A stretch of DNA of 59,931 nucleotides from Pseudomonadota bacterium (lineage in GTDB: Bacteria > Pseudomonadota > Gammaproteobacteria > Burkholderiales > SG8-39), in NCBI GenBank assembly GCA_031376265.1, contig JANMDK010000020.1, forward strand, positions 1-59,931. The letters are read 5' to 3'. Every line of letters begins with the position of its first letter. Within the stretch, counting starts at the first letter, position 1. The notes below the pieces were generated by a model. It searched no databases. It saw only the letters and a program-made list of their open reading frames with translations, and was not told where the DNA came from. This document shows positions 15,684 through 34,861 of the stretch, piece by piece. The position numbers and the translations under genes were made by a program.

Positions 15684-15807
15684 TGAGCGAGAATAGCAGG
15701 AGGACGAAAGCGGGAGAGATGACCCCTTTGTAGCCTGACGGCGCGTTAACGCACTGACGAGGCAGTCAGGGACGAGGCAAGCTTCTCGTCTCAACCGGTA
15801 AATTTCA

Positions 15808-16179
15808 GTGACCAAGGCCAAGCGGCGCATTCTCGTCGTGGAAAACGACAAGGCTTCAGGGGAAACCCTGAGGGACCTGCTCGTCGAAATGGGCTTCGAC
15901 GTCCATCTCGTGAACGATGGCGAATCCGCGGTGCAGGACGTGCCGAAATTCCACCCCTCGATCGTCCTCATGGACGTCGGCCTGCCGGGCATCGACGGCT
16001 ACGAAGCCACGCGCCAGATCCGCAAGATCGAAATCGGCCGCAAGGCTCTCATCGTCGCGCTGACCGGCTTCGGGCAGATCCAGGACATCAAGAAGGCCGC
16101 AGACTGCGGGATGGACAATTTCCTCACCAAGCCGGTCAGCCCGAAGAAACTGCTGCAGGGCCTCGCGCGCTACGACTGA
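15808..16179 (+). CDS. Single-domain response regulator (CheY-like)
   Basis: RILVVEND, MDVGLPGIDG, ALTG, LTKPV. Confidence 0.9.
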   Translation: MTKAKRRILVVENDKASGETLRDLLVEMGFDVHLVNDGESAVQDVPKFHPSIVLMDVGLPGIDGYEATRQIRKIEIGRKALIVALTGFGQIQDIKKAADCGMDNFLTKPVSPKKLLQGLARYD

Positions 16180-16201
16180 CCGGCGGGGACGACTCGGGCG
16201 G

Positions 16202-16585
16202 CTAGCCGCCCGAGGTCGCAAAGACCTGGTTCAGCTCAGCCAGGCTCGCCGGCTTCAGCAGGAAATGGTCCATGCCGGCATCGGCCGCCTGCTGCTCGAA
16301 CTTGCGCTGCGCGTAGCCGGAGAGCGCCACGACCACCGCGGACCGGCCCGACTCTTCCCGCCGCATTTGCCGCGTGGCCTCGTACCCGTCGATGCCGGGG
16401 AGGCCGATGTCCATGAAGACGAATGCCGGGAGGTATTGGGGCACGACCTGTACCGCGGTCTCGCCGTCGGTGACGATCTGGACATCGAACCCCATCGTTA
16501 CGAAAAGATCCCTCAGGCTCTCGCCCGAGGCCTTGTCGTCTTCGACTATAAGGATGCGCCGACCGGCTCCGACCACGCTCATCAA
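16202..16585 (-). CDS. Single-domain response regulator (CheY-like)
   Basis: RILIVEDD, MDIGLPGIDG, ALSG, LLKPA. Confidence 0.9.
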   Translation of the reverse strand: MMSVVGAGRRILIVEDDKASGESLRDLFVTMGFDVQIVTDGETAVQVVPQYLPAFVFMDIGLPGIDGYEATRQMRREESGRSAVVVALSGYAQRKFEQQAADAGMDHFLLKPASLAELNQVFATSGG

Positions 16586-16652
16586 CAGCCCCCGAAAAGC
16601 GCGAATTTACCCTACCGGGGGGGAAAGTCGGTGCTTTCGACTACTTACTGCC

Positions 16653-19298
16653 CTAGTTGCGATCCCTTCTCGGGGGAACGTACGGCGGCACGTAGGGGGG
16701 TGGGGGTACGACCACGGGCACAGGCACCGGCTGCGGCGCGAGCTGCACCGGCGGCTGGACGATTTCGAGGACCAGAGGTGCGGGGACGTTGACGCCGGCC
16801 ACGGTGAGATTGAAGGCGGGTGAGTGCGACAGGAACGGCGTCGCGCCGATCATCATGCCCGGCACGAATAGCACGGGCAGCACCTCGGAGGCGGCGACGG
16901 CCGCTTCGCCGGCAACCGGCGCAACGACATCCGGCGCAACGACAACCGGCGCCACGACAACCGGCGCCACGATCACCGGCAAGACCACCACGGCGGGTGT
17001 GATCGATGCTGTCGTCCGACCGACGATCGGGGCGCAGCACGTCGCCGGCAGTGCGAAGGCGGCCGCGTTTGCGCCGGCGAGCGTGAACCCGGTGAAGGTC
17101 ACTGTCTTGGCGACCCCGACGCCGGGGGTGTCGAAGGCGGCCGCGGCACCAGGCCCGGCCACCAGCGATACGCCGGCCGGCGTCCCCTTGAGTGCGGTAA
17201 AGACTGCGGTGGTGGTGCCGTCGAAAGCCTTGTCAGCGCCATCGGGGAAGACCAGCATGCGCGAGACGACCGGACCGGCGTTGCCGGTAAAGCGGCCCGA
17301 ATAGTCGGTAGGCGTCAGGTACGAGGTCGGGTTGTAGAAGATGTTGATCGGCGTGACGCCGGCCGGCCCGGTCGCGGTGATGAAGGTGCCGCCGGTGAAC
17401 GTAACGGTGCCGGCTGCCGCGCCCGGCCCTGTGCCGCCGTTGCCGGCGTTCAGGGTCAGTCCGCGAGGCACGCCGAAGTTGGAGAGGCTTTCGCCCACAG
17501 TCACGCTGCCGCGCGTGAGCGTAATCAGCGGCCCGGCATCGAAGGTATTGCTGAGGACGATGTCGTTGGCGGAGCACATCTGGATGTTGCCGTCCGTGGT
17601 GACGATGCCCGCGGTCTGCGAATTCACCGTCAGGCCGTTGCGGATGACGTTCACGTTTCGGCCGCCGGAGAGCAGCACGCTGCCGTTGGTCGTCGTGATC
17701 GGCGCGTTGACGTTCACGTCGCGCCCGCAGCACACGACGAGGTTTCCGCGGGTGGTGGTTATTGGTGCGTTTATGTTCACGTCCCTCGCGGCCAGCAACG
17801 AAAGCGTCGTGGGATTCGTCGGCGTCCACGTAAGCGCCGAATTCACGCTGATGTCGCCGGCGCCGTTGCCGGCTGCGCCGACGTTGGTCGTGGTGACGGT
17901 GATATTGGTCCCGCCGCCGGCTTCGAGTGCAACCCGCAATGCGCCCACGTCGACGGTTGCGGCGCTTACGCCGGAATTCGGGGTGAAGACGTTGCCGATC
18001 AGGGTCGCGTTGGTTGTGCCGGCGCCGATGATCACGTCGGCGGGGTCGAGGAGCCAGGTGCCGGCCTTACCGTTCGCGGCGCTGGCGTTGATGCTGATCC
18101 CGTTGACCTCGAGGGCGTGGCCGGACGTCTCGATCAGGCCGCCGTCGCCCCCCAGCGCGCCGCCCTTGGCCGAGATGCTGCCGGAAGCGCGCGTCGAATC
18201 GTTGGACCACAGCACCACGGTGCCGCCGTTGCCGCGTGAGATGGCATCCGCGGTGATTTTCGCGTCTGCGCTCATGTAAGTCGCGGAGGCGTTGGGCACC
18301 GCCGCGTTGTTGCCCTGGTAGCCGCCGCCGACGAGCACCGTTCCGCCGCCTGCGTCGCCGGACGCGTTGACCTGCGCGCCGAAGAGGCCGACATGATGGC
18401 CGGCCAACGTGATGTTGCCGCCGGTTTGTCCCGCGCCAAGGCCCGAGGCATCCAGCGTTCCCCCGGCGCTCACGGTGCCGTTTTGCATGTCGCCGACCAG
18501 CCGGATCGTCCCGTTGCGGGTATCGATCGTCTGCGCTTGGATCACGCCGGTGTTGTTAACCGCGCTTTGCAGGAGGCTTTCGGCCGACTTTGCCGTGAGC
18601 AGCACGGTCCCGCCGTCGGCGCGAATCATCCCGGAGTTCTGCGCCAGCGCGTTGACCGCGCCTTCGTTGACCGCGAGGTTGAGCAGGCCGTCACCCGCCA
18701 CGTCGAGCGTCATCGCATTGCCGGAGGCGAGCACGACGCTGCCCAGGCGCGCGGTGATGATCCCCTCGTTGCTCACGTTTGCGCCGAGCAGCGCGACGTA
18801 GCCGCCATCGGACGCATTGATCGTGCCGCGGTTGACGACCGAGCCGTTGCCGGCACCGTCGAATTTGTAGCGGCCGGCCATGAAATCGGCGTCCGAAATG
18901 TTCCGCGTCGAGGCCACCAGCCCCCCGACGTTTACCTGCGCACCGGGCGCAAAAAGAATCCCGTTCGGGTTGACCAGGAACACCTTGCCGTTCGCCGAAA
19001 GGCTGCCGAGGATATTGGAGGGATCGGCACCCAGCACGCGGTTCAATGCGACCGAGCTGCTGTTGGGCTGCACGAACCGCACCGCCTCGGCCGCACCGAT
19101 GCCGAAGGATTGCCAGTTGATCGCGGCATTCTGGCTCGATTGCGTGATCGTCGTCGTGCCGGGCGTCGCGACGATGCTCGCGCTGCCGGCCGAGACCGCG
19201 CCGCCGGTGGGCGCCGCGAACGCGGTCATGGCGTTCGAGACCGCAAGGCCGAGCGCGGCCATCCGGGTGAAGCGGAAATATCGATTGCGATTGTTCAC
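16653..19298 (-). CDS. TpsA exoprotein with filamentous-haemagglutinin N-terminal (TPS) domain
   Basis: Signal peptide, INWQSFGI, LNRV, VFLVNPNGILF, GGLIETSG, WLLDP; one YDG-like repeat (DKAFDGTT); Pro/Val-rich tail. Confidence 0.9.
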   Translation of the reverse strand: MNNRNRYFRFTRMAALGLAVSNAMTAFAAPTGGAVSAGSASIVATPGTTTITQSSQNAAINWQSFGIGAAEAVRFVQPNSSSVALNRVLGADPSNILGSLSANGKVFLVNPNGILFAPGAQVNVGGLVASTRNISDADFMAGRYKFDGAGNGSVVNRGTINASDGGYVALLGANVSNEGIITARLGSVVLASGNAMTLDVAGDGLLNLAVNEGAVNALAQNSGMIRADGGTVLLTAKSAESLLQSAVNNTGVIQAQTIDTRNGTIRLVGDMQNGTVSAGGTLDASGLGAGQTGGNITLAGHHVGLFGAQVNASGDAGGGTVLVGGGYQGNNAAVPNASATYMSADAKITADAISRGNGGTVVLWSNDSTRASGSISAKGGALGGDGGLIETSGHALEVNGISINASAANGKAGTWLLDPADVIIGAGTTNATLIGNVFTPNSGVSAATVDVGALRVALEAGGGTNITVTTTNVGAAGNGAGDISVNSALTWTPTNPTTLSLLAARDVNINAPITTTRGNLVVCCGRDVNVNAPITTTNGSVLLSGGRNVNVIRNGLTVNSQTAGIVTTDGNIQMCSANDIVLSNTFDAGPLITLTRGSVTVGESLSNFGVPRGLTLNAGNGGTGPGAAAGTVTFTGGTFITATGPAGVTPINIFYNPTSYLTPTDYSGRFTGNAGPVVSRMLVFPDGADKAFDGTTTAVFTALKGTPAGVSLVAGPGAAAAFDTPGVGVAKTVTFTGFTLAGANAAAFALPATCCAPIVGRTTASITPAVVVLPVIVAPVVVAPVVVAPDVVAPVAGEAAVAASEVLPVLFVPGMMIGATPFLSHSPAFNLTVAGVNVPAPLVLEIVQPPVQLAPQPVPVPVVVPPPPYVPPYVPPRRDRN

Positions 19299-19310
19299 GC
19301 TGAGTCCTGT

Positions 19311-20969
19311 CTAGAAGTACTTCACGCCTTGGATCCAGAATCGGCTTTTCGCGTCGGGGGCTGAAGTCGCGACCGCGTTGCCGAGCTTGTGCGCCCAATA
19401 CGCGCGCACGACGAAATTGTTGTAGTCGGCCCAGGTCAGGCCGACACCGGCGCCGCTGAGCGTCCTGCTGTTGTTGCCGGGCAGCCACGGGTTCTTGTTG
19501 ATCGTGACGCTGCCGGTGTCGACGAAGCCGACGAGGTGCATCTGGCCGACCAGGTTGGCCGGTTTCGGCAGCAGCATGCGGGCTTCGAGGTTCACTACGT
19601 AGCCTTCATCTGCGTAGGCCTCGCCCTCGGGATAGGCGCGAACTGCGTACGCGCCGCCGAGCGACATTTTCTCGGAGATGTCGAGGTTCTTCGAGGCCAC
19701 CTGCCCGCGGATCGCGGCATAGAGCGAGAAAGGCCCGCCGAGCGTCTGCAGGCGCATCGCGTGGAAGCCGAACTTGTCGTAGTGCCCGTTGCTGCGCGCC
19801 GTCAGCGCATCGGCGGCGCGCGCGGCCGGCGTCTCGATGTCCAGCGACCCCGTGGACCAGGTCCCCGAATAGGCCGTGAAGCCGCCACCGCCCCAGTTGT
19901 CGCGGCGGTCGCCGGCGAGGCCGAAATGTGCAACGCCGATCTTGCGGTCGGTGGTTGCATTCGTCAGGTCGATGCGGTCGTGGAAAGTCTTGGCGTCGAA
20001 CCCGGCCAGCGCATACAGGTTGGTGTTGCGCGAGCGGATCAGCGGGTAGCTGCCGTAAATGCTCGCGATCTGCGCGGTGCCATGCGCGCCGAGGTTGGCG
20101 AACTCCCGGCCGAGCCGGTATTCGAGCGCCGTAAAAGCGACCCCGAGCGTCGCCCGGCCGAATTGCGCCTGGTACGAGATGCGGCCGTAGGTCAGGCCCG
20201 ATGAGGCCAGCGCGCGCACCGAAAGCACGTCGCCCTGGCCCGCGAGGTTGTTGAGGTTGACGGTGCCGCCGACGCGGTATTCGCCGGTGTAGCGGTTGCC
20301 GTGGTTATCCGCTTCGACGCTGCCGTTCACGCGGCGCCCTGGGACCACGTCGACGATGAGGTCCGATGTGCCGGCCGCCTGGCCCGGCACAAGCGAGGAA
20401 CGCACGCCGATGCCCGGGATGTCCGAGAGCAGCAGCAGGCGCTCCTCGAGCGGCGCAATGGTGATCGTATCGCCGGCGTTTAGCCCGCTTAACAACCCGT
20501 TGGCGAGCCCGTCGTTCAGGTTCGACGAATTGCGCAGCACGACCTGCCCATAGCGGCCTTCGATGACCTGGATGGCCACCGCGCCGTCGCGAATGTTCTG
20601 GGCGGGCAGGTAGGCCTGGGCGACGATGTACCCGTTGCGGTTGTAGTGGTCGGTGATCCGAGCCGCCATGGCTCGCAGTTCGGCCAGGCTCAACTCCCGG
20701 CCGGGCAGGAAGCCGGCGATTTCGAGCAATTCGCCGACCGAGTAGACGGTTTGCCCGGTGATCGAAAGGGTATTGACCCGGATGCGGGTGTCGTCCGCAA
20801 GCGGTGCGGCCGGCTTGCCGCCCTGCTCGATGCGCACGTCCGGCAAGGGCCGTTGCGGGGCCGGCGCAGGGGGTACCTGCTGGATCAGCCCGCCGGAGCT
20901 GGGGGGCTGCTGGGCGAACGCGGCCGTGCCGAATACGGCGATCGACGCGAGAAGGATGGTTCTTTTCAA
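19311..20969 (-). CDS. TpsB (ShlB/FhaC/HecB family) outer-membrane transporter
   Basis: Signal peptide, POTRA motif (YNRNGYIVAQAYLPAQ), DNHGNRYTG, GGAYAVRAY, C-terminal Phe. Confidence 0.92.
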   Translation of the reverse strand: MKRTILLASIAVFGTAAFAQQPPSSGGLIQQVPPAPAPQRPLPDVRIEQGGKPAAPLADDTRIRVNTLSITGQTVYSVGELLEIAGFLPGRELSLAELRAMAARITDHYNRNGYIVAQAYLPAQNIRDGAVAIQVIEGRYGQVVLRNSSNLNDGLANGLLSGLNAGDTITIAPLEERLLLLSDIPGIGVRSSLVPGQAAGTSDLIVDVVPGRRVNGSVEADNHGNRYTGEYRVGGTVNLNNLAGQGDVLSVRALASSGLTYGRISYQAQFGRATLGVAFTALEYRLGREFANLGAHGTAQIASIYGSYPLIRSRNTNLYALAGFDAKTFHDRIDLTNATTDRKIGVAHFGLAGDRRDNWGGGGFTAYSGTWSTGSLDIETPAARAADALTARSNGHYDKFGFHAMRLQTLGGPFSLYAAIRGQVASKNLDISEKMSLGGAYAVRAYPEGEAYADEGYVVNLEARMLLPKPANLVGQMHLVGFVDTGSVTINKNPWLPGNNSRTLSGAGVGLTWADYNNFVVRAYWAHKLGNAVATSAPDAKSRFWIQGVKYF

Positions 20970-21065
20970 GGCAGGTCTCCCAACTGAGGCCCGAGTTTGT
21001 CCTACACGCCGTAGACAAACTGTTCGCCAACTAACATAGGACGAAAAGCTAAAAACCCCCTAGAT

Positions 21066-21785
21066 TCAACTCTCTGGCAACGGGGCCAGAAGGCGGTCGA
21101 ATTCCAGTTTAACCACTCCGTAGCACTCGCAGACAGCCTTTTCGACGCCGGGCCGGTCGAGGACGTCGATGCGGCCCCGGGCGTAGCTGATGAGCCCGGC
21201 CCGCTGGAGCTTGCCGGCCGCCTCGGTGACCCCTTCCCGGCGCACGCCAAGCATGTTGGCAATGAGCTCCTGCGTCATGCGGATCGATTGCGTCGGCAGC
21301 CGGTCCAAGCTCAGCAGCAGCCAGCGGCAGAGCTGCTGCTCGACCGTATGGTGCCGGTTGCACACCGCGGTCTGCGTCATCAGCGTGATCAGCGCCTGCG
21401 TATAGCGCAGCAGCAGCCGGAGCATCGGGCCCGCGCGGTTGAACTCCTCCTTGAGCAGCCGCGAGCGCATGCGATAAGCGAAGCCCGCGCTCTGCACAAC
21501 GGCGCGGCTGGGCGTGGTTTCCCCGCCCATAAAGAGCGAGATGCCGAGGATGCCTTCGTTGCCGACCACGGCGATTTCGGCGGAGGCGCCGTCGGCGAGC
21601 ACGTAGAGCAGCGACACGATCGAGGTTGTCGGGAAGTAGACATGCGACAGGCGGCCGCCGGATTCGTAGATCGCCTGGCCGAGCTTCAGGGGAACCAACT
21701 CGAGGTCCGGCGCGAGGCGCTGGAACACGTCCGCGGGCAATGCGGCAAGCAGGCAATTCTGCAGCGGGTTGTGGGGGCTCGGCAT
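21066..21785 (-). CDS. Crp/Fnr family transcriptional regulator (paralog 1)
   Basis: cNMP-binding-like domain and HTH MTQELIANMLGVRREGVTE; C-terminal CECY. Confidence 0.92.
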   Translation of the reverse strand: MPSPHNPLQNCLLAALPADVFQRLAPDLELVPLKLGQAIYESGGRLSHVYFPTTSIVSLLYVLADGASAEIAVVGNEGILGISLFMGGETTPSRAVVQSAGFAYRMRSRLLKEEFNRAGPMLRLLLRYTQALITLMTQTAVCNRHHTVEQQLCRWLLLSLDRLPTQSIRMTQELIANMLGVRREGVTEAAGKLQRAGLISYARGRIDVLDRPGVEKAVCECYGVVKLEFDRLLAPLPES

Positions 21786-21950
21786 GGCAACGAATTGTCG
21801 CCAACGCAGGTAGAACTATCTGTTCGCTATCAGACATATGGGAAAATTTTCGTCTCTGTTCGGTACCAAACATAGGTGCGTATTTTTTATGTGCGTTACC
21901 CCGCATAAGGGTGTAATCTTCTTTCCCCCCCAATTTCAGCGAGGCTGCAC

Positions 21951-22715
21951 ATGACGACGAAAGTCTCGGCAGCCAGGCCTCCCCCCAGGACGAATCACCT
22001 GCTCGCGGCGCTGTCCGACACGGACTTCGAGCGGCTGTCACCCCACTTCGACTACGTCGACATGCCGCTTGGCTCTTCGCTGAGCGAGTCGGGCAGCCGC
22101 ATGGACCACGTGTACTTCATTACCGACGGCATCGTTTCGCTGCTCTATGTGATGGAGAACGGCGCGTCGGCCGAGATAGCCGTGACCGGAAACGAAGGCA
22201 TCGTCGGCATATCGCTCTTCATGGGCGGCGAAAGCACCACCAGCCGCGCGATCGTGCAGAGCGAAGGGCACGCCTACCGGCTGCCTGCCCGGTTCCTGCG
22301 CGCCGAATTCGAGCGCGGCGGCGAATTGCAGCACCTGCTGCTGCGCTTTACCCAGGCGCTGATCACGCAGATGTCGCAGACCGCGGTGTGCAACCGCCAC
22401 CACGAGGTCGAGCTGCAGCTCTGCCGCTGGCTCCTGCTCAGCCTCGACCGGCTGCCCACGAACGAACTGCACATGACGCAGGAACTGATCGCGAACATGC
22501 TCGGCGTGAGGCGTGAAGGCGTGACGGAGGCGGCGGGCCGCTTGCAGGAAGCAGGGCTCATCGAGTACCGCCGAGGTCACATCAAGGTGCTCGACCGGCC
22601 GGCCTTGGAGAAGCGCGTCTGCGAATGTTACGCGGTCGTCAAGAAGGAATCCGACCGCCTGCTGAATTACGTGGCTTCCAAGAGCACAGGGGCGTCCGGA
22701 TCCCACGTTCGATAG
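21951..22715 (+). CDS. Crp/Fnr family transcriptional regulator (paralog 2)
   Basis: Same architecture; VCNRHH, GVRREGVTE, CECY. Confidence 0.92.
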   Translation: MTTKVSAARPPPRTNHLLAALSDTDFERLSPHFDYVDMPLGSSLSESGSRMDHVYFITDGIVSLLYVMENGASAEIAVTGNEGIVGISLFMGGESTTSRAIVQSEGHAYRLPARFLRAEFERGGELQHLLLRFTQALITQMSQTAVCNRHHEVELQLCRWLLLSLDRLPTNELHMTQELIANMLGVRREGVTEAAGRLQEAGLIEYRRGHIKVLDRPALEKRVCECYAVVKKESDRLLNYVASKSTGASGSHVR

Positions 22716-22757
22716 CGAACAGACGGAGCCCCGGATGGGGGGCCACCATGCGTCACA

Positions 22758-23465
22758 GTGGCCGCCATCCCCAACATCCTGCTTCGCCTTCTACCGCGCA
22801 AGGACTACCTTCGCTTTGCTTCCGGACTGACGCCGGTCACACTCGAATTCGGGAAGGTTCTCTACGAGCCGGGCAAGCCGATCCGTGATGTGTATTTCCC
22901 TAGCGCCTGCCTGATATCGCTGCTCAAGATCGCCGCGGGACATCGTGCCCTTGAGGTGGGCATGGTCGGCCCGGAGGGCATGCTCGGCATCCCGATCGCG
23001 CTTGGCATCGGGAGCTCTCCGATTCGCGCGCTGGTGCAGGGGGAGGGAACCGCACTGCGCATGGGCAAGGCCCGCTTCCTGAAAGAATTCAATTCGTGCG
23101 CGCCGCTGCACCGGATCGTCCTGACCTATGTGCACGCGCTGATGGGCCAGATCGCGCAGACCGCGGCGTGCAACCGGTTCCACGTCGTCGAGGGCCGGTT
23201 GGCCCGCTGGCTGTTGATGACCCGGGATCGCATGGCTTCGGGCGATTTCCGCATGACGCACGAATTCCTCTCGCACATGCTCGGCGTGCGGCGCGAAGGC
23301 GTCAGCGAAGCCGCGGCGGGTTTCCAGGAGAAGGGCCTGATCGAGTACAGCCGCGGGAAGATCCGGATCCTCAATCACCGTGGGCTCGAGGCGGCCGCGT
23401 GCTCCTGCTACGGCGAATCGCCCAAGGGGCCGGAAGCGATCCCGGCCTGGCGGCCCGCGCGTTAG
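22758..23465 (+). CDS. Crp/Fnr family transcriptional regulator (paralog 3)
   Basis: More divergent; ACNRFH, GVRREGVSE, CSCY. Confidence 0.9.
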   Translation: MAAIPNILLRLLPRKDYLRFASGLTPVTLEFGKVLYEPGKPIRDVYFPSACLISLLKIAAGHRALEVGMVGPEGMLGIPIALGIGSSPIRALVQGEGTALRMGKARFLKEFNSCAPLHRIVLTYVHALMGQIAQTAACNRFHVVEGRLARWLLMTRDRMASGDFRMTHEFLSHMLGVRREGVSEAAAGFQEKGLIEYSRGKIRILNHRGLEAAACSCYGESPKGPEAIPAWRPAR

Positions 23466-24217
23466 CCGGCGACGACCTTAAGGGTCTCGACGCGTGGGAT
23501 ATCCGACATCAGGCGATCGAACTCGGTCTTGACCACGGCATAGCACTCGCAAGAAAGCTTTTCCAGGCCTTCGCGTTTCAGGACGGTGATGTGCCCGCGC
23601 CGGTAATCGATGACGCCGTCCACGCGCAGCCGCCCGGCAGCTTCGGTGATCCCTTCGCGGCGCACCCCGAGCATGCTGGCGACGAGTTCCTGCGTCATCG
23701 TCAATTGTCCCGAAGGCACGCGGTCGAGGGTCACCAGTAGCCATCGGCACAGTTGCTGCTCGACCGAATGGTGCCGGTTGCACACGGCGGTCTGGGTCAT
23801 CTGCGTGATCAGCGCCTGCGTGTAGCGCAGCAGCAGGCGAAGCATCGGCCCGGCGCGGTCGAATTCCTCCATGAGTCGCCGACGTTCGAGGCGATAGGCG
23901 AAGCCGGCCGTCTGGACCACCGCGGAACTCGGGGTCGTGTCCCCGCCCATGAAGAGCGAGATGCCGACGACCCCCTCGTTGCCGACGCCGGCGATCTCGG
24001 CCGAATCGCCGGATTCGATCACGTAGTGGAGCGACACGATGGACGAGGTCGGGAAATACGCGTGCTGGAGCTGGCCGCCGGGTTCGTAGAGGACTTGGCC
24101 GAGTTTCAGCTCGACCAGCTCGAGGTTCGGGGCGAGGCGGTCGAATTCGGCCTTCGGCAGCGCCGCAAGCAGGTGGTTCCGGTTCGGGCTGTGAAGCGAG
24201 GGATCGACGATAGCCAT
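23462..24217 (-). CDS. Crp/Fnr family transcriptional regulator (paralog 4)
   Basis: VCNRHH, GVRREGITE, CECY; last gene of the kinase-receiver operon. Confidence 0.92.
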   Translation of the reverse strand: MAIVDPSLHSPNRNHLLAALPKAEFDRLAPNLELVELKLGQVLYEPGGQLQHAYFPTSSIVSLHYVIESGDSAEIAGVGNEGVVGISLFMGGDTTPSSAVVQTAGFAYRLERRRLMEEFDRAGPMLRLLLRYTQALITQMTQTAVCNRHHSVEQQLCRWLLVTLDRVPSGQLTMTQELVASMLGVRREGITEAAGRLRVDGVIDYRRGHITVLKREGLEKLSCECYAVVKTEFDRLMSDIPRVETLKVVAG

Positions 24218-24229
24218 CGGGCGCCCGGA

Positions 24230-25051
24230 TTATTTCTTGTGGCTGGTTTCGACGCCGATGCCGCGGTACCCGATGAAGCGGCAGGACTGGTTGAACATCG
24301 GCTCGCCGCTCACCTGGTATCTCTGTTTCGTCCCGTCGGCATTCATGCGGCTGAAATTGAAGTCGAGGAAAGGCTGCCGAGAAGCGATTGTCGCCTGGAG
24401 CTTTTCCCTTTCGGCGTCGTTCCAGCCGTCGTTATTGGCGCTGGGCGTGGTTCCCGCTAGGTTCGATACGCGCATTCCGAGCATTTCGAGCACCGGCCCG
24501 GAAACCTTGGTGAAGTTGCCGTTTTCGTCCTGTTCCCAATACCAGTCGGACGCAAGCTCGGTCAGGCTTCGATAGCGGGCCTCGCTTTCGCGCAGCTCCG
24601 CGGTGCGCTCCTTCACCGTCTGCTCGAGTTCGCGGCTGTAATTGGCGAGCCGCTTGTAAAGGAGCCGCACCTCGAGCATGTTGCGGATGCGGGTGCGCAC
24701 TTCCACGAGGTCGAAAGGCTTCGAGACGAAATCCCTTGCGCCGGCCTGCAACGCGCGGATCTTGTGCCCCGGCTGGGCGGTGATCACCAGCACCGGGAGA
24801 TAGCCGTCGACCAGATTGATTTTCAGGCCTTCCATGACCTGGAACCCGTCCATGCCCGGCATCTGCAGGTCGAGCAGGATCAAGTCGTAGTTGTTCTTGC
24901 GGTGCAGGGCGCAGACCTCGAGCGGGTTCATTGTCGAGGTGACCGCGGTATATCCGGATTCGGCGAGCATCTGCTCCAGCAGGCCGACGTTGGATTCCTG
25001 GTCGTCGACGATCAGGATGCTGGCGTTGAGGATGGCGTCGTCGTCGATCAT
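24230..25051 (-). CDS. Response regulator with REC, coiled coil and PAS domains and no output domain
   Basis: ILIVDDQ, LDLQMPGMDG, SKPF; RYRSLTELASDWYWEQD...SGEP...GYRG PAS. Confidence 0.85.
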   Translation of the reverse strand: MIDDDAILNASILIVDDQESNVGLLEQMLAESGYTAVTSTMNPLEVCALHRKNNYDLILLDLQMPGMDGFQVMEGLKINLVDGYLPVLVITAQPGHKIRALQAGARDFVSKPFDLVEVRTRIRNMLEVRLLYKRLANYSRELEQTVKERTAELRESEARYRSLTELASDWYWEQDENGNFTKVSGPVLEMLGMRVSNLAGTTPSANNDGWNDAEREKLQATIASRQPFLDFNFSRMNADGTKQRYQVSGEPMFNQSCRFIGYRGIGVETSHKK

Positions 25052-26706
25052 TGCGAGAGTTCCTTTTTCGCCCGGACCGCGGCAGTTTTCGAGTATGCCA
25101 ATGCTACATCGAGGGCTTCCATGAACTGGCTGACCACGATCGGCTTGGTGAGGTAATTGAAGAATCCCGCTTGGAGCGCCTTCTCGATGTCGCGCGGCAC
25201 CGCATTCGCGCTCAAGGCAATGATCGGGATGTGCGCAGTCGCCGGAGTGAGGCGCAGGATCTCCATGGCTTCCAGGCCGCTGATGCCCGGCAGGTTGATG
25301 TCCATGAGGATAACCTCGGGCAGGTAGGCGCGCGCGAATTCGATGCCGAGGTTGCCGTCGGCCGCCGAAAGAAGCCGAAGTTCCGGCCGCCGCGCGACGA
25401 GCTGCTCGACCAGCTCGAGGTTGGCTGGGTTGTCCTCCACATAGAGGATCGTCCGAAGCGGCGCGCCCGGCGGGAGTTGCGGGCGGATCGTTTCCTTATG
25501 ATCGGCCTCGTGCGCCTCCAGCGCCGGGGCGCTCGTGAGGGTCAGGTCGATCCAGAACACGCTGCCGACGCCGACGGTGCTCTCCACGCCAATCTGCCCG
25601 CCCATGAGCTCGACCAGCCGCTTGGTCACTACCAGCCCGATGCCGGTACCTTCCTCGGCGGTCGCTTCCTTTCCCAGCCGGTTGAAAGGCTGGAAAAGCT
25701 GCGAAACCTGCTCCGGCGTGAGCCCGACGCCGGTGTCGCGAACGCTGATGTGGACGGTGTTCGCGGCGCTCATTGCCCACTCGACGGCGACCGAGCCGCC
25801 CGGCCGGTTGTACTTGACCGCGTTGAAGAACAAATTGATCAGCACTTGCTTGACGCGGGTGCGGTCGGCGTTGACGAACAGCGGCTTGTCGAATCTCGGG
25901 AAGGTCATCGCAATGCCGCGCTTGTGCGCCTGGGGCTCGACCATTGCGCGGCATTCGAGCATGACCTCGGTGAGCGAAACCGGCTCGCCCGACAGGGTCA
26001 CTTTGCCCGACTCGATCAGCGCGAGGTCGAGGATCTCGTTGATCAGGTCGAGCAGGTACCAGCCGGCCTTGAGGATCTGCTCGAGGTTGCGCTTCTGCGA
26101 AATGGTGGGCGCGGGGAGGCCGGTTTCCATGAGCTGAGCAAATCCGAGGATTGCGTTTAGCGGCGTGCGCAGCTCGTGGCTCATGCCGGAGAGGAAATCG
26201 GTCTTCGCCTGGCTCGCTTTATCGGCTGCGACCATCGCACGCTTGAGCTCGGACTCGACGCGCTTCCTGACCGAGTTGTTGGTGCCGATCAGCAGGTAGC
26301 CAATGAGGGCGCCGTCGTCGTCCAGCAAGCCGGTAATCGACACGATCGCCGGAAAGCGGTTGCCGTCCTTGCAGATGTAGGTCAGCTCGTAGATATCTTC
26401 GATGCCCCGCGAGGCCTTGTAGGCAAGGGCCTCGAACCCCGGCGCGATCGGCGTGCGGAACTCGACGCTCAACGTGGCGGCGCGGGCCTTGACCTCATCG
26501 GGGTCGTGGATGTCGCTCGGGTTGATCTTGTTGACGACTTCTTCCGCCGTGTAGCCGAGCATGCGCTCGGCGCCGACGTTGAAGAACTGGATGATGCCTT
26601 TCTCGTCGGTCGCGATGATCGAAAACTTGGCGCTTCTGAGGATCGCATTCTGCAGCGCGCCGGTCTTCATTCTTGCCTTGGTGAGGGAAGGGTTTACTGG
26701 AGGCAT
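25048..26706 (-). CDS. Cytoplasmic hybrid histidine kinase (PAS-HisKA-HATPase-REC)
   Basis: FNVGAERMLGY PAS, MSHELRTPLN H-box, NAVKY, DTGVG, GTGIGL, C-terminal receiver; start 26706 or 26670 rather than 27258. Confidence 0.9.
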   Translation of the reverse strand: MPPVNPSLTKARMKTGALQNAILRSAKFSIIATDEKGIIQFFNVGAERMLGYTAEEVVNKINPSDIHDPDEVKARAATLSVEFRTPIAPGFEALAYKASRGIEDIYELTYICKDGNRFPAIVSITGLLDDDGALIGYLLIGTNNSVRKRVESELKRAMVAADKASQAKTDFLSGMSHELRTPLNAILGFAQLMETGLPAPTISQKRNLEQILKAGWYLLDLINEILDLALIESGKVTLSGEPVSLTEVMLECRAMVEPQAHKRGIAMTFPRFDKPLFVNADRTRVKQVLINLFFNAVKYNRPGGSVAVEWAMSAANTVHISVRDTGVGLTPEQVSQLFQPFNRLGKEATAEEGTGIGLVVTKRLVELMGGQIGVESTVGVGSVFWIDLTLTSAPALEAHEADHKETIRPQLPPGAPLRTILYVEDNPANLELVEQLVARRPELRLLSAADGNLGIEFARAYLPEVILMDINLPGISGLEAMEILRLTPATAHIPIIALSANAVPRDIEKALQAGFFNYLTKPIVVSQFMEALDVALAYSKTAAVRAKKELSQ

Positions 26707-26771
26707 CGGGATCCGGAAAAGTGCATGCAACCGACGGGTCGCGAATGGTGGCCGTTTTGCAACCATTTGTA

Positions 26772-26841
26772 TGTTCGTCAACGAACATTGCCCGGAAGGG
26801 TTCGCCAACGCACAGACCGCGTGGGGAACGGCCCCTAATCT
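26772..26841. promoter_or_regulatory. Divergent promoter region with two TGTTCG-N4-CG(A/C)ACA boxes
   Basis: TGTTCGTCAACGAACA 26772-26787; GGTTCGCCAACGCACA 26799-26814; TAATCT 26836-26841. Confidence 0.7.
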
Positions 26842-27111: not shown

Positions 27112-27131
27112 AACGCAAGTCTCGGAAATCG

Positions 27132-27157: not shown

Positions 27158-27330
27158 GGCGAAATCCACCGCCAGCACTTACAAAAAATAAATGAACCAA
27201 ATGCGCTTCCATGTTCGCTGACGTACGGACGGCACGGTTTAGCGAACGTAATCTCCACTCAGACACAACAGGCACACGCGGGAATCTTTCCGAGGCGGAT
27301 GCCGAAGCAGTACCAAACCGGAGTTACCGC

Positions 27331-28266
27331 ATGAAAACCGAAATTCGCATGGCCCTACTGGTCCTCGCCTCAACGTCGGCGACCGCTTTCGCGCAGGACA
27401 TCCCGCAGTGCGCAGCCCTCTTCGACAGCGCTAACAACTATTTCACGGCGAACAACGCACCGGCGAACGCGCCGAACCGCCAGTGCTTCCTCACAGTGAT
27501 GCCGAAAGACGGCCCGAATTCGCTCGCCGGCTTCCCGCAGCTCGCGAGCTACCCCTCGCCGCAGATGGGCGAAGGCACCTATGAAATCCTCCTCAGCGGC
27601 GGTGGCGGCGGTGGCGGCGGCGGCGGATTCCTCTCTTCCGGTGGTGGCGGCGCAGGCGCGGTGCCCTCGAAGACCTCGCAATACCTGAGCCCGGGCGTCT
27701 ACAAGCTGACGATCGGCACCGCGGGCCGGGGTGGCGTTAACGGCGGCGACGGCGGCAACGGCAACCCGACCAGCGTGACCAAGGCTTATACGAATGAGTT
27801 GATCGCCGGATTCTCGGGCGCCGAGAACATGGTGGTGGCATCGGCCGGCAGCCGGTCGCTGGGCGGCGGCAGCTCGATGGACAGCTCCGGCGCGCGTGGC
27901 GCCAATGGCCAGGGCAATGGCGGCGCGGGCGGACGCCTGCCGGATCGCAATGGAAACGGCGAGATCCCGTCGCAGTCGGGCGGAATGATGCAAGTGGCCG
28001 GCGTGCCCACGGGTGCCCCTGGCATGGGCGGTTCGCATGACGGCGGTGGCGGAGGCGGCGCAGGCTTCGGCAACGGCAGCAATGGCAAGTCCACCGACAG
28101 CTTCGGCGACAAGAGGCTCGGCGACCAGGGCGGCAACGGCTTCGTGAGGATCACCCCGATCCAGATCGCGCAGGCCACGCCGGTCGCGCCGATGGCGGCG
28201 CCGATCGTTGCGCCGGCCCCGGCGCCTTATGTGGCCCCGGCTGCCGCAAAAAGAGATCGTAACTAA
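27331..28266 (+). CDS. Secreted glycine-rich-domain protein with Pro/Ala tail ending KRDRN
   Basis: Signal peptide (ATAFA); GGGGGGG...GGGGAG...LTIGTAGRGG...GGNGFVRIT glycine-rich domain pattern. Confidence 0.75.
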   Translation: MKTEIRMALLVLASTSATAFAQDIPQCAALFDSANNYFTANNAPANAPNRQCFLTVMPKDGPNSLAGFPQLASYPSPQMGEGTYEILLSGGGGGGGGGGFLSSGGGGAGAVPSKTSQYLSPGVYKLTIGTAGRGGVNGGDGGNGNPTSVTKAYTNELIAGFSGAENMVVASAGSRSLGGGSSMDSSGARGANGQGNGGAGGRLPDRNGNGEIPSQSGGMMQVAGVPTGAPGMGGSHDGGGGGGAGFGNGSNGKSTDSFGDKRLGDQGGNGFVRITPIQIAQATPVAPMAAPIVAPAPAPYVAPAAAKRDRN

Positions 28267-28338
28267 AGACCAGGCAGTTTCTACCGGCCCCGAGCTGTGC
28301 GTGCGCAGCCCGGGGCCTTACTTCGTACGGCAGGGTAG

Positions 28339-29233: not shown

Positions 29234-29443
29234 GCGTGAGATGTCTTCCTCCCAGAAGAGCGTTGCGGGATTTTCGCCGCGCAGTGGCACGCGGCGCGCC
29301 GCAAGTGTCGGGGAGATTTCGCAGAGAGGTCAAGCGTGCTCGGCCCGCCGGACCCGCGTGTATGATCGACGCGACTTCGCGACGCAACAAACGCGGAATA
29401 AAACCCCGTCGGGAGAGGTGAATGGCGGCCGGCCCATGTTCGC

Positions 29444-30622: not shown

Positions 30623-30662
30623 ATGCTTTGGCAGTCTTGGCCCCAATGACCGTGCAGGCACC

Positions 30663-31364
30663 GTGACCAAACGACTGACGCTCACCCGCGAATCGATCCT
30701 GGATGGAAGCCTGCGCGCCTCCGCCAAGGAACTGCTCGGCCCTGGCGTCGTCTTCATGACCGACGAGGAGCGCACGCGCCAGATCCGCGCAATGCTCGCG
30801 GCCACGCCGCGCCCGGATCGCGTCTGGGTGTTCGGCTTCGGGTCGCTGATCTGGAACCCGGCTTTCCATTTCGTCGAGCGGCGCACCGCACTGGTTCGGG
30901 GCTTCCACCGCCAGTTCTGCTTATGGGCGCGCGCCGGGCGCGGCAGCCCGCAGAGTCCGGGGTTGATGCTGGCGCTGGAGCGCGGCGGCAGCTGCCATGG
31001 CGTCGCCTACCGAATCGCGCCGGAGCAGGTCGAGGCCGAGCTCGACGTGGTCTGGCGGCGAGAGATGCTCACCGGCGCCTACCGCGCGGTCTGGGTCAGC
31101 GTGCAGACGCCGGAGGGCGTCGAGCATGCGATCGCCTTCGCCGCCAACCATGGGCATGAAAGGTACGTGCGCGGCCTGGACAACGACGAGACCGCGCGGT
31201 TGCTGGCCACCGGCAAGGGGCCGCTCGGTACTTGCTGCGACTATCTCTTCGATACCGTCACGCACCTCTCGGACCTCGGCATCCGCGACAAGCGCATGGA
31301 AGCGCTGGTCGAGCGCGTGCGCGCCCACCTCGACTCGGCTACGCCACCAGAACTTTCGGATTGA
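30663..31364 (+). CDS. chaC: ChaC family gamma-glutamylcyclotransferase
   Basis: [30 protein letters not shown]. Confidence 0.85.
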
Positions 31365-32313
31365 CCACGTTGATCGGCTTGCCCGCCGCGTAGGCGACAA
31401 CCTGGTCGAAGATGTCGGAGAACTGCAGCTCGTATTCGTCGCGCGTGACATAACCTATGTGCGGCGTGGCGACGACGTTGTCGAGCTTGAGCAGCGGGTC
31501 GTCGACGTTGCGCAGCGGCTCTTCCTCGAACACATCCACAGCAGCGCGTCCGGGCCGGCCCGCGCGCAGGGCGGTCACCAGCGCACTGGGCTCGATGAGT
31601 CCGGCACGGCTGGTATTCACCAGGATCGACGAAGGCTTCATTAGCGCGAGGTCGGCCCGCGTGACGATGCCGCGCGTCTCCTTGTAGAGCCGCATGTGCA
31701 GCGAGAGCACATCGCACTGCTCGAAGAATTCGCGCTTGCTAGCAGCGGGCGCGTAGCCGTCCGCGGCCGCGCGGGCGCGCGATTCGTCGCGAGCCCAGAC
31801 GATGACCTTCATGCCGAAAGCCTTGCCGTACCCCGCGACCGTGGCGCCGATACGGCCGTAGCCGTAGATGCCGAGCGTCTTGCCGCGCAGGGTGTCGCCG
31901 ACGCCGATCTGCCACTTGCCCGCCTGCAGCGCGGCCATCTGCTGCGGAAGCTGGCGCGCGGCGGCAAGGGTAAGCGCCCACGTAAGCTCCGCAGCCGCAT
32001 AGGAAGGCGTGCCCGCATGCTGGTCGGACGAGACGATGATGCCTTTTGCGGTGCAGGCATCGATGTCGATATGCGGGTAGACGCTGCGCTGGCTGATCAG
32101 CCTAAGCTTTGGCAGGCGCTCGATCAGCGGCGCGCGGATCTGCGTGCGCTCGCGGATCAGCACCAGCACCTCGGTGTCCCTGAGGCGCTCGGCCAGCCGG
32201 CCGACTTCCTGCACATGGTCGTTCCAGATCGTGATGCTGTGCCCGTCGAGCTTCGAAAAGCAGGTGAGCGTGTGGATCGTGTCGAAATAGTCGTCGAGGA
32301 CGGTGATGTTCAC
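31339..32313 (-). CDS. D-2-hydroxyacid dehydrogenase family protein
   Basis: [28 protein letters not shown]. Confidence 0.9.
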
Positions 32314-32444
32314 GGGGATCCCGAGCTTGGTCAGCGTCCCGGGATTGTTTCAAGTTTTGCGCCTTGACTCCAGCGGGGTGAGGCGAGCGCCGGCAGCCTG
32401 GCCAGCGGCGGCAGGGCGAATTTTCCCGAAGCAAAGCTGCCTGA

Positions 32445-32508
32445 AAATGTCAGCAAGTTAACTGGAGAGCCAATGGACACGCGGGGACGGCAAAAAAAAT
32501 GTCAGTAG
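32445..32508 (+). repeat. 64-bp boxed dispersed repeat, copy 1
   Basis: AAATGTCAGCAAGTT-N7-GAGCCAAT-GG-ACACGCGGGG-N6-AAAAAAATGTCAGTAG. Confidence 0.85.
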
Positions 32509-32634
32509 TGCATTTGCGTCAGCGGCAGGCCGGTGACTGGCGGCTGAAAATTCTTCATTGGCGTGCGTGGTCGTCGCGGCTCGCGTAAGCTTCGCCGTTT
32601 CGACCCGTCTCTCAAGCCCGAAGGGAACCCACGA

Positions 32635-33435
32635 ATGCGCATCAACCGCGTGAAACAGCTCTGGCGCGAAGGCAAGACCGCCGTCGGCGGCTTCCTGTCG
32701 ATTCCTCACGTCCTGTCGGCCGAAGCGATGGCCCACACCGGCCTCGACTGGCTTTGCATCGACATGCAGCACGGCTGCATCGACTATTCGGACGCGGTGC
32801 CGATGCTCGCCGCGATCTCGACCACCGCGGTGACGCCGATCGTGCGCGTGCCCTGGAACGAGCCGTCGATGATCATGAAGGTGCTCGACGCTGGCGCCTA
32901 CGGCGTGATCGTGCCGATGGTGAGCAACCGCGAGGAGGCGATGCGCGCGGTCGCCGCCTGCCGCTACCCGCCCAAGGGCAGCCGCAGCAACGGGCCTAAC
33001 CGCGCGATTTTCTACGGCGGGGCCGATTACCAGAAGCACGCCGACAACGAGATGCTCTGCATCGTGATGATCGAGACGGCCGAGGGCATCGAGAAGATGG
33101 ACGAGATCGCCTCCACGCCGGGCATCGACGCGGTGTACATCGGGCCGACCGACCTCGCGCTCGCGCTCGGCCTGCCGCCGGTCATGGACAACGACGATCC
33201 CAGGCACGTGGCCACCGTGAATCGCGTGCTGGAGACCTGCCGCAAGCACAAGGTGGTCGCGGCCATGCACACGATGAGCGCCAAGTACACGCAGCGCTAC
33301 ATCGACCAGGGCTTCCAGATGGTGATGCTCACCTCGGACCGCCTTGGGATATCGAATTGGCTCAAGGCCGAGGTGGGCAAGCTCACCGGCTGGACCCCGC
33401 TGGTGCCGACCGAGGCGCCGCTGCGAAACAGCTGA
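32635..33435 (+). CDS. HpcH/HpaI aldolase family protein
   Basis: IDMQHG, IVRVP, VLDAGAYGVIVPMV, MIET, YIGPTDL. Confidence 0.9.
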   Translation: MRINRVKQLWREGKTAVGGFLSIPHVLSAEAMAHTGLDWLCIDMQHGCIDYSDAVPMLAAISTTAVTPIVRVPWNEPSMIMKVLDAGAYGVIVPMVSNREEAMRAVAACRYPPKGSRSNGPNRAIFYGGADYQKHADNEMLCIVMIETAEGIEKMDEIASTPGIDAVYIGPTDLALALGLPPVMDNDDPRHVATVNRVLETCRKHKVVAAMHTMSAKYTQRYIDQGFQMVMLTSDRLGISNWLKAEVGKLTGWTPLVPTEAPLRNS

Positions 33436-33525
33436 GGTTGGGCGACGTTCTAGCCCGTACAGGCGAAGTCCGCGCGCACGCGCCGGGCTAGACTCGCGCA
33501 TGGCCTTCCGGGGAATTTTCACCAA

Positions 33526-34716
33526 GTGACGTTCGACGCCCGCGCGCTGCTCATCGTCGGCGCCTTCCTGTGCTGGATCCTGGCACTGGCGATCGAATTC
33601 CTCGCGATCCGCACCGACGCGCGGCGCTGGCTTCCCGGGGCGTATACCGCCGGCCTCCTGATCCACGGCCTCGGCCTGATCCTCATCTCGCAGCGCGGCC
33701 TCATCGGCGACCTCTGGAGCATCCTGCTCGCCAACGTGCTGCTGCTGCTGGCGCCGCTCTTTTACTTCTCGGCCCTGCAGGCGGTACGCGGCCTCAAGCC
33801 CGACTACCGGGTGCTTGCGGCGATGCCGGTGAGCATGGCGGTCCTGCTGCCGGTGGTCGGCTTCTCGCAGCAGGCGTTCACTTCGCGCGTGATGATTTTT
33901 ACCTGCGCCGCGCTCTTCGCTTTCGGGCTGATCTGCTGGGCTGCCTTCCGCATCGCCCGCGCCGGCAAGTCCGGCGGCTGGATGATCCTCGGCGCCATCG
34001 GCACGCTGGCCGTGATCACCCTCACGCGTGCAATGTCGGTGGCTGCCGGGCAAGTGTCCGGCGTGTTCGACTCGCAGGGCGTGCAGCTGGCGTTCTACCT
34101 CGTGAATGACGCGTGCATCGCGCTTGCGGCGTTCGGGTACATGGACATCATCCGCGCGCGGCGCCAGCCCCAGCTCGACCGGCCGTCCGAAATGGCGCCG
34201 GACGCGCAAACCGGCCTCTACTCGCGCGCGGCCTTCCTGCGCAGCGGCATGGAGGAGCTCAACCGCGCGCGCCGCAAGGATTACGCGATCACGCTGATGC
34301 TGATCCAGGTCGACCGCATCGACGCCACCACGGCGGCCAAGGGCGCCGGGTTCGTCGAGCTGGCGCTCAAGCGGGTCGCTACCTCGATCCTGCGCGACAT
34401 CCGCATGTACGACGTCGCGGGGCGCCTGTCCGAGAGCGTGATGGGGGTGATCATGCCGGAGCTGGCCCTGGCCGATGCCGTGGACGTTGCCGAGCGCATC
34501 CGCTCGGCCATCGAGGAGGACCCCGCCATCCGCAACGGAACGTACGGCGTGACCGTCAGTGCCGGCGTCTGCGAGGTGGAGAAGATCCACCAGGAGCTGG
34601 GCGAAGTCATGGCCGTCGCCCACCAGTGCCTCGAGCGCGCCCGCGCGCTGGGCGGCAACCGGGTGGTGACCCCCGACCGGTCCCTGTCAAAGAGCTTCGT
34701 CGCGGACACGATCTAG
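33526..34716 (+). CDS. Membrane protein with degenerate GGDEF domain
   Basis: About 7 TM segments, DAQTGLYSR, AERIR, TVSAG, GGNRV; active site reads SESVM. Confidence 0.8.
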   Translation: MTFDARALLIVGAFLCWILALAIEFLAIRTDARRWLPGAYTAGLLIHGLGLILISQRGLIGDLWSILLANVLLLLAPLFYFSALQAVRGLKPDYRVLAAMPVSMAVLLPVVGFSQQAFTSRVMIFTCAALFAFGLICWAAFRIARAGKSGGWMILGAIGTLAVITLTRAMSVAAGQVSGVFDSQGVQLAFYLVNDACIALAAFGYMDIIRARRQPQLDRPSEMAPDAQTGLYSRAAFLRSGMEELNRARRKDYAITLMLIQVDRIDATTAAKGAGFVELALKRVATSILRDIRMYDVAGRLSESVMGVIMPELALADAVDVAERIRSAIEEDPAIRNGTYGVTVSAGVCEVEKIHQELGEVMAVAHQCLERARALGGNRVVTPDRSLSKSFVADTI

Positions 34717-34861
34717 CCCCTGCGTGTCATCCGTTTTCCGGGTTTGTACGTTATTCGCCTACATGCGGTCGCGCACCTGTCGTACAGACGGCGGGGCCTT
34801 CAGCACGGATAGTCGGCGTTCATAGGGAACGTGTTTGCTGGGCACTTAAGCGGGGTGTGTC

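Follow-up and report, generated by a model that had tools for sequence, protein, structure and literature searches.

Four genes for regulators of the Crp/Fnr family lie close together in a stretch of 59,931 nucleotides (nt) from a bacterium of the Burkholderiales lineage SG8-39 (GenBank assembly GCA_031376265.1, contig JANMDK010000020.1), and 16-base inverted repeats of one type stand ahead of these genes and of several of their neighbours. What binds these repeats (boxes in the following), and what does it do to the genes behind them? The stretch, which we call the window, is an entire contig (C185) of a 4.81-Mb assembly with 400 contigs and 65% G+C. We analysed the boxes in the window, in the rest of the genome and in other species. 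Because the box recurs at a fixed distance before stress genes and Crp genes in many genomes, the 16-base palindrome is, on sequence grounds, very probably the site to which the regulators themselves bind, one not described so far. We consider it likely that the boxes are one operator family bound by a dimer of the local Crp clade, and that this dimer acts by class II activation in a self-reinforcing stress and envelope regulon.

An earlier note on this DNA, made from the letters alone, had listed nine sites of the form TGTTCG-N4-CGAACA, placed before eight transcription units. All nine 16-mers, with their coordinates and hexamers, proved to be present in the sequence, and we scored them with a weight matrix trained solely on boxes from other species. 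Seven sites are strong (21021, 21821, 21857, 22706, 26772, 26799 and 27212; 12.9 to 20.2 bits), and just 109 of the 4.8 million positions of the genome score 12 bits or more. These seven have zero to two mismatches to TGTTCG-N4-CGAACA, and zero or one to the more permissive TGTNCG-N4-CGNACA. The two others did not hold up equally. The site at 15740 is marginal, and indistinguishable from chance because 540 to 1155 genome positions score at least 7.8 bits, as it does; that at 34771 is not a full box, since its promoter-proximal half alone matches, and it gave no match to the box pattern at up to three mismatches. The list of eight units thus includes one that is unsupported (34771) and one that is marginal (15740). 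In the whole window, TGTTCG-N4-CGAACA with up to three mismatches was found 48 times, against 27.3 +/- 5.3 in shuffled sequence (0 of 100 shuffles got to 48), and the segment from 21.0 to 27.2 kb holds seven of the 11 window matches with at most two mismatches.

Homologues of the regulators in other species were identified with a back-translated pattern search, and the best 80 (67–79% identity) of at least 598 loci were analysed. These 80 come from, among others, Undibacterium, Methylobacillus, Noviherbaspirillum, Paraburkholderia, Caballeronia, Pandoraea, Variovorax, Propionivibrio, Halomonas, Methylobacter, Steroidobacter, Dyella, Rhodanobacter and many metagenome-assembled genomes, and they contain 192 boxes. 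The palindrome proposed in the earlier note is real, with one correction: position 4 is degenerate (G 47%, A 22% and T 22% in other species), and matches in the genome of the window likewise vary there (TGTGCG, TGTACG), so that the consensus is better written TGTNCG-N4-CGNACA. Among the 192 boxes the two-fold symmetric core GT-N10-AC is strongly conserved (G2 98%, T3 92%, A14 92%, C15 98%), as are C-G at positions 5 and 6 (93–98%), with G at position 6 and C at position 11 each in 97%.

We then scanned the genome of the window, in which genes had been called with a simple home-made caller based on codon bias (4701 genes; 89% coding, 11% non-coding). With a matrix derived from the seven strong boxes of the window, 36 matches reached 16 bits or more, 32 of them intergenic and 25 outside the window (p = 4e-27), in agreement with the expectation that the motif would be enriched ahead of genes. 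With TGTNCG-N4-CGNACA, 23 of 27 perfect boxes are intergenic (binomial p = 7e-19), and 69 of 190 when one mismatch is allowed. The regulon proposed from the window would not be local: about 55 candidate promoters with a box at class II geometry are predicted genome-wide.

The earlier note also reported a constant distance of 21 nt, sometimes 22, between each box and a hexamer resembling a -10 element. This holds for six of the seven strong boxes (22 nt at 22706), and not for the box at 21857, which is 41 nt from its hexamer; the centre of that box would lie at -61.5 for crp2, a class I-like position. To count the spacing elsewhere we required A at position 2 and T at position 6 of the hexamer (NAnnnT). 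In the genome of the window, 55 of the 69 intergenic boxes are followed by such a hexamer after 21 or 22 nt on at least one side, against 25 of the 121 coding ones (Fisher p = 1e-15). Outside the window and in the direction of the gene, the count is 19 of 45 site-directions for offset 21 and five for offset 22, with zero to five (mean 1.7) at each other offset. In the 80 loci of other species, 127 of 384 box-directions have it at offset 21 and 35 at offset 22, against a background of 8 to 32 (mean 17; Poisson p = 1e-64 for the peak at 21). The class II spacing therefore extends well beyond the sites from which it had been proposed. The fixed spacing of 21 to 22 nt puts the centre of the box at -41.5, provided that the NAnnnT hexamer is the -10 element.

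Alignment of the 127 other-species sites with a hexamer at offset 21 gave a picture of the putative promoters. The box spans -49 to -34, and the flanking T at -51 (78%) and A at -32 (87%) extend the motif to 20 bp, giving the wider palindrome T-N-TGTNCG-N4-CGNACA-N-A. The promoter side is asymmetric, with G at -33 (73%) and C at -31 (56%) around the A at -32; the terminal CA of the box and the following GAC form caGACn between -35 and -30. This matches the core of TTGACA and is separated from the hexamer by 17 nt. Conservation of the -10 region is slight once the two positions fixed by our pattern are set aside, the exception being T or C at -12. C at -13 is not in excess in these sites (31%), so no sigma-S signature can be claimed; nor did they show a conserved GG or GC between -26 and -12, or a -24/-12 element. 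Overall, the box-bearing promoters look weak and sigma-70-like, with -41.5 as the centre of the operator.

The box is linked to the Crp clade by several lines of evidence. Within 300 nt ahead of the Crp homologue, 46 of the 80 loci of other species have a box with at most one mismatch (63 boxes in all), and 40 of these 63 fall in the single bin from -200 to -101, with a background of about two per 100-nt bin. In the same upstream regions two scrambled patterns and the CRP consensus were found 0 times and the FNR consensus once. When inverted repeats in the 250 nt ahead of these genes were counted blind, GTGCG-N4-CGCAC came first, in eight loci against none in the coding control. The genome of the window encodes eight paralogs of the clade, seven of which have a box ahead of their transcription unit, giving computational support to the suggestion of a self-amplifying regulon. 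Six have class II spacing (crp1, crp3, the copies on contigs C175, C13 and C300, and crp4 through its operon), and crp2 is served through the box at -61.5.

To look further afield, we sampled 120 further families of the class, one genome per family, with E <= 1e-40 defining a clade member; the strict pattern was a perfect box followed by 22 N and ANNNT, and the reversed pattern was the control. Clade members were found in 10 of the 120 genomes, and these 10 have 27 strict matches against 24 in the other 110, about 12 times more per genome (one genome without the clade, G077, is flagged as unpublished). The reversed pattern gave 31 matches over all 120 genomes, which places the genomes without the clade at chance level. 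In the genome of the window there are 18 strict matches against none to the control; the Mann-Whitney p-value is 7e-8, to be read with related genomes being not fully independent. Many of the strict matches adjoin Crp genes.

The proteins of the clade carry the Pfam domains PF00027 (cNMP_binding) and PF13545 (HTH_Crp_2). For crp1, an AlphaFold2 model based on an alignment of 40 members reached a predicted local distance difference test score (pLDDT) of 90, and in Foldseek it resembles Mycobacterium tuberculosis CRP (4a2u; template modelling (TM) score 0.75) as well as GlxR and FNR (0.7–0.76, with 4cyd and 8qto among the matches), at 13–23% identity. The model thus places the clade in the CRP/FNR superfamily, with an N-terminal, cNMP-binding-like beta-barrel, a long dimerisation helix and a C-terminal winged helix-turn-helix. 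The recognition helix reads G-V-R-R-E-G-V-T/S-E; among the 40 members R182 and R183 are invariant and G185, T187 and E188 are kept in at least 90%. Since this helix is almost invariant, no box variant can be assigned to one paralog. In a HMMER alignment to GlxR, the R-E pair of the clade falls on the R-E pair of GlxR, and the third contact, K in GlxR, falls on Glu. According to PMC10187061, R-E of the Escherichia coli protein CAP contacts G2/T3 and the partner of G4, and the third contact is Arg185. A Glu at this third place would fit a conserved GT...AC core with a degenerate position 4.

The residues that bind cyclic nucleoside monophosphates (cNMP) are not kept: in the GlxR alignment the Glu of G-E-L falls on a gap and the Arg on Ser, and S-R of crp1 (residues 93-94) lies outside the columns conserved at 90% or more. 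Instead, C142, H146, C219, C221 and Y222 (crp1 numbering; Cx3H...CxC-Y) are invariant in 40 of 40 sequences, and H145 and C153 are kept in at least 90%, being missing from a subgroup (crp3 and the copies on C13 and C300) that has CNRFH...LARW in place of CNRHH...LCRW. No N-terminal Cys is among the invariant columns of the 40 members. In the secondary structure of the model, the long dimer helix ends with C142 and H146, and two additional C-terminal helices flank the CxC. The Cx3H...CxC set could be a metal, Fe-S or thiol switch, and together with the missing cNMP ligands it suggests a sensing mode undescribed for the superfamily. The clade also has no specific name in the resources searched: NCBIfam has no specific family for it (the best is NtcA, 35 bits against a cut-off of 245), names in the protein atlas are merely "Crp/Fnr" or "putative CRP-like protein Clp", and at least 8000 protein clusters match at E <= 1e-30 under generic names throughout.

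The earlier note had not recognised the regulon as described. Our search of the literature, with subscription journals and supplementary tables outside reach, likewise found no description of TGTNCG-N4-CGNACA or of the clade. The kind of system, Crp-type class II, is well known. Clr of Sinorhizobium meliloti, a member of Crp cluster G, has the nearest described operator. According to two papers, Clr depends on cyclic AMP (cAMP) or cyclic GMP (cGMP), binds HGTYHC-N4-GRWACA and reads C6/G11 with the helix RPKVNR (PMC10187061), and activates from -42 to -76 (PMC10187061, PMC10127613). The two operators share the 16-bp palindrome with 6-N4-6 layout, G2-T3/A14-C15-A16, a degenerate position 4 and an informative position 6, and the folds are alike (7pza at Foldseek rank 50, TM 0.68), although the sequence search of solved structures (E <= 0.01) did not return Clr. 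They differ in that our box has C-G and not H-C at positions 5-6, with G6/C11 instead of C6/G11, and in that the helix is RREGVTE and not RPKVNR. Moreover, Clr needs cAMP or cGMP whereas the clade has not kept the cNMP ligand residues, and Clr-like proteins are said to be confined to Sinorhizobium, unlike the clade, which is widespread in Beta- and Gammaproteobacteria.

The class II sites of E. coli CRP (TGTGA-N6-TCACA) have in common with ours the GT-N10-AC core, a centre at -41.5 (predicted in ours) over the -35 region and the R-E pair; the half-site is TGTNCG in the clade and not TGTGA, Glu replaces Arg185 and the cAMP pocket signature is absent. FNR, Anr and Dnr (TTGAT-N4-ATCAA) share the N4 spacer and are Crp-fold activators at -41.5, with several paralogs per genome controlling stress or persistence genes (PMC3721108), but their half-site is another one, and the N-terminal Cys cluster of FNR is absent from the clade, whose Cys and His residues sit at the end of the dimer helix and in the C-terminal CxC. 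SdrP of Thermus thermophilus is a stationary-phase Crp-family activator of stress genes with no cNMP requirement; it differs in belonging to a distant phylum, in its site and in being single-copy. The lxa motif of Burkholderia cenocepacia (TGA-N6-TCA; PMC3721108) is FNR-like. We rejected the lxa motif as the same site, as TGA-N6-TCA differs from the box.

All sequence-based checks on the proposal of the earlier note came out in its favour, and we put forward the following working model. A dimer of the Crp/Fnr clade would recognise the box through the helix G-V-R-R-E-G-V-T/S-E. Its site at -41.5 would overlap a residual -35 element (caGACn), 17 nt from a weak NAnnnT -10; since the operator lies over the residual -35 of weak promoters, the dimer is most likely a class II activator. 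With seven of eight paralogs behind a box of their own family, activation would set up a self-reinforcing cascade, and some 55 promoters of this type would drive genes of the kind expected in general stress and envelope responses, namely those for CsbD, DUF883, glycine-zipper lipoproteins, an RsbR-like STAS protein, KaiC, PAS and PAS-GGDEF proteins, a PLD enzyme and two-partner secretion.

A number of points weigh against this interpretation. No box with at most one mismatch was found within 300 nt of 34 of the 80 homologues in other species, and the paralog on C41 in the genome of the window has no upstream box. The two-box arrangement with a TAAnCT hexamer ahead of the lipoprotein gene is kept in only three of the five closest orthologous loci. 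The -10 hexamer is loosely defined, hence the -41.5 position rests on an inferred start site, and the gene calls come from the simple caller described above. Association with the clade is no proof of binding, as Crp genes could be favoured targets of a co-inherited factor. A site over the -35 region could also serve a repressor.

In the last case the clade would bind the box and repress, occluding the -35 region, and the paralogs would be autorepressed. Overlap with the -35 element is a common position for repressors too, and the box does cover the caGACn remnant. We nevertheless regard repression as unlikely, because the spacing is constant within 1 nt in about 160 of the 192 boxes of other species, which is typical of an activator in contact with RNA polymerase, while repressor sites tolerate variable positions. 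The promoters, with at most GAC at -35 and a -10 conserved only as T/C-A-N3-T, also look weak alone, and CRP, FNR and Clr are activators from this position (PMC10187061, PMC10127613). That some other dimeric factor co-inherited with the clade binds the box, the Crp genes being merely among its targets, seems quite improbable. Response regulators and other regulators do occupy the same islands, but no other DNA-binding family recurs beside the boxes (145 downstream open reading frames), the pattern tracks the presence of the clade in the 120 sampled families, and the nearly invariant recognition helix (40 members) matches the constant half-site. Furthermore, a GT-N10-AC core within a 16-bp palindrome centred at -41.5 is characteristic of the CRP/FNR superfamily (PMC10187061).

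We also considered that the box might be a promoter element, either the -35 element of an extracytoplasmic function (ECF) sigma factor of the GAAC type or a NifA-type upstream activator sequence of a sigma-54 promoter. The right half CGAACA contains GAAC in the genome of the window, and the box formally fits the NifA consensus, TGT-N10-ACA. Both ideas are very improbable: a sigma factor reading one strand does not explain why the two halves of the palindrome are equally conserved, and GAAC is not conserved, since position 13 is C in 47% of the other-species boxes; no GG-N10-GC is conserved between -26 and -12, and NifA-type sites lie far upstream at variable distance, here replaced by a fixed 21 nt. 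Finally, chance likeness among a few GC-rich intergenic palindromes may account for the two weak sites at 15740 and 34771 only. As an explanation of the boxes as a whole it is practically untenable given the intergenic excess of perfect boxes (23 of 27, p = 7e-19), the offset peak (p = 1e-64) and upstream controls that gave 0 for three patterns and 1 for the FNR consensus.

We also examined the genes behind the boxes. Outside the window, the Pfam families of the targets in the same genome (30 proteins scanned) include CsbD, DUF883, DUF1236, CHRD, CopK, DUF6627, an RsbRD_N-STAS protein, KaiC, a PAS protein, a PAS-GGDEF protein, a PLD-type (cardiolipin-synthase-like) enzyme, an SDH-type protease, FMN reductase and an AI-2E transporter. 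In other species, the 145 open reading frames behind a box with hexamer comprise 33 Crp proteins, eight kinases (five of them hybrids with the architecture of the window kinase), six fatty-acid desaturases, four BON and four GGDEF proteins, two each of DUF883, glycine-zipper, fumarase and ice-binding-like proteins, one each of CsbD, KaiC, FMN reductase, CFA synthase, Band 7 and LemA, and many small frames without a family. The target families in both sets agree with the stress and envelope character that had been suggested. An rpoS match above the family cut-off is present in the genome of the window (C274:10817-11644, 426.9 bits); the regulon therefore exists beside RpoS and not in its place, and we rejected the possibility that it substitutes for a missing RpoS.

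We found the combination of protein, box and spacing again across Beta- and Gammaproteobacteria, and plasmids carry it too. Genera with the clade include Burkholderia, Paraburkholderia, Cupriavidus, Ralstonia, Variovorax, Halomonas, Methylobacter and Dyella, and 62 plasmid or chromid records carry it, including records from Burkholderia, Cupriavidus, Mycetohabitans, Caballeronia and Ralstonia. The regulon may be mobile as an island. On the conjugative plasmid pKLC102 of Pseudomonas aeruginosa, a member at 9001-9720 stands beside desaturase and methyltransferase genes, and two boxes (10185 and 14380), each with a hexamer at 21 nt, precede hypothetical genes. A record from B. cenocepacia has five boxes with a 21-nt hexamer within 12 kb of a clade gene. 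In a complete 2.9-Mb genome from another family (G138:C1:1810359-1900752), a segment of about 90 kb contains six of the eight matches and five paralogs, a regulon island like that of the window.

More broadly, and only tentatively, we raise the doubtful possibility that the clade is the master regulator of a programme of the general-stress type, which would exist alongside RpoS across Beta- and Gammaproteobacteria and move on plasmids and genomic islands. Its signal would come not from a cyclic nucleotide but through Cx3H...CxC at the hinge between dimer helix and DNA-binding domain, as a metal, Fe-S or thiol redox switch at a position unused by FNR, and paralogs sharing one operator would integrate different inputs. 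With a defined operator and a fixed geometry, the regulon can be read directly from any genome bearing the clade. It involves stress and envelope targets (CsbD, BON, DUF883, glycine-zipper, KaiC, RsbR-like, desaturases, GGDEF) that would otherwise be put down to RpoS by default.

Boxes and genes of the window (positions are those of the whole stretch; bit scores from the other-species matrix)
Feature	Position	Strand	Sequence	Basis and remarks
Box upstream of tpsB (- strand reading)	21021..21036	-	TGTTAGTTGGCGAACA	21 nt before CAAACT (20999-20994); 12.9 bits
Box of crp1	21821..21836	-	TGTCTGATAGCGAACA	21 nt before GACAAT (21799-21794); 18.0 bits
Box in crp1/crp2 divergent region	21857..21872	+	TGTTCGGTACCAAACA	41 nt before TAATCT (21914-21919); 18.4 bits
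Box overlapping crp2 stop codon	22706..22721	+	CGTTCGATAGCGAACA	22 nt before CACCAT (22744-22749); 18.7 bits
Perfect box of hybrid kinase/REC-PAS/crp4 operon	26772..26787	-	TGTTCGTTGACGAACA	21 nt before CACCAT (26750-26745); 20.2 bits
Box of glycine-zipper lipoprotein gene	26799..26814	+	GGTTCGCCAACGCACA	then GAC; 21 nt before TAATCT (26836-26841); 17.1 bits
Box of Gly-rich protein gene	27212..27227	+	TGTTCGCTGACGTACG	then GAC; 21 nt before TAATCT (27249-27254); 16.8 bits
Marginal candidate, receiver gene	15740..15755	+	GGCGCGTTAACGCACT	then GAC; 22 nt before CAAGCT; 3 mismatches; 7.8 bits
Half-site, proximal CGTACA only	34771..34786	+		GAC and GATAGT at 21 nt present; -15.5 bits
Receiver, single-domain response regulator	15808..16179	+		Pfam; downstream of marginal site 15740
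tpsB (19311-20969), tpsA (TPS, YDG domains; 16653-19298) and single-domain receiver (16202-16582)	16202..20969	-		Pfam
crp1, Crp-clade paralog	21066..21785	-	helix GVRREGVTEAAG	Pfam HTH_Crp_2 and cNMP_binding; AlphaFold2; Foldseek
crp2, Crp-clade paralog	21951..22715	+		Pfam
crp3, Crp-clade paralog, CNRFH subgroup	22758..23465	+	helix GVRREGVSEAA	Pfam
crp4, Crp-clade paralog, closing gene of kinase operon	23462..24217	-		Pfam
REC-PAS protein, middle gene of kinase operon	24230..25051	-		Pfam
PAS-HisKA-HATPase-REC hybrid histidine kinase	25048..26670	-		Pfam; start codon uncertain (26670-26709)
Glycine-zipper (Rick_17kDa_Anti) lipoprotein, 72 amino acids	26893..27111	+		Pfam
Gly-rich domain protein	27331..28266	+		Pfam

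The Pfam families between 15.7 and 28.3 kb are receivers, a two-partner secretion pair, four Crp/Fnr genes, the kinase operon, a lipoprotein and a Gly-rich protein, in agreement with the gene names in the earlier note. The products of crp2 to crp4 are 43–71% identical to that of crp1. The tpsB, tpsA and receiver genes are probably one unit behind the box at 21021. A second TpsB in the same genome (C10:3503-5071) has a box 240 nt upstream, with no hexamer at 21 or 22 nt. Further along the window, a 721-amino-acid open reading frame on the - strand (32458-34623) matches no family and is unlikely to be a real gene; opposite it, the + strand carries an HpaI/GarL-like aldolase gene (32635-33435) and a GGDEF diguanylate cyclase gene (33526-34716).

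At least seven boxes in the genome of the window have the spacer CCAG/CTGG, mostly as TGTGCG-CCAG-CGCACA (C351:6712, C300:52053, C73:1682, C72:16397, C70:15743, C300:45676 and C233:6871). This sub-variant might define a group of sites on which one particular paralog, or a heterodimer, acts. The ATG of crp1 at 21785 is 8 nt past the end of its GACAAT hexamer, so that the crp1 mRNA is probably leaderless. The GTG of crp3 at 22758 is likewise 8 nt past its CACCAT hexamer; with the predicted -10 ending 8 nt ahead of the start codon in both cases, the two mRNAs would be leaderless or nearly so.

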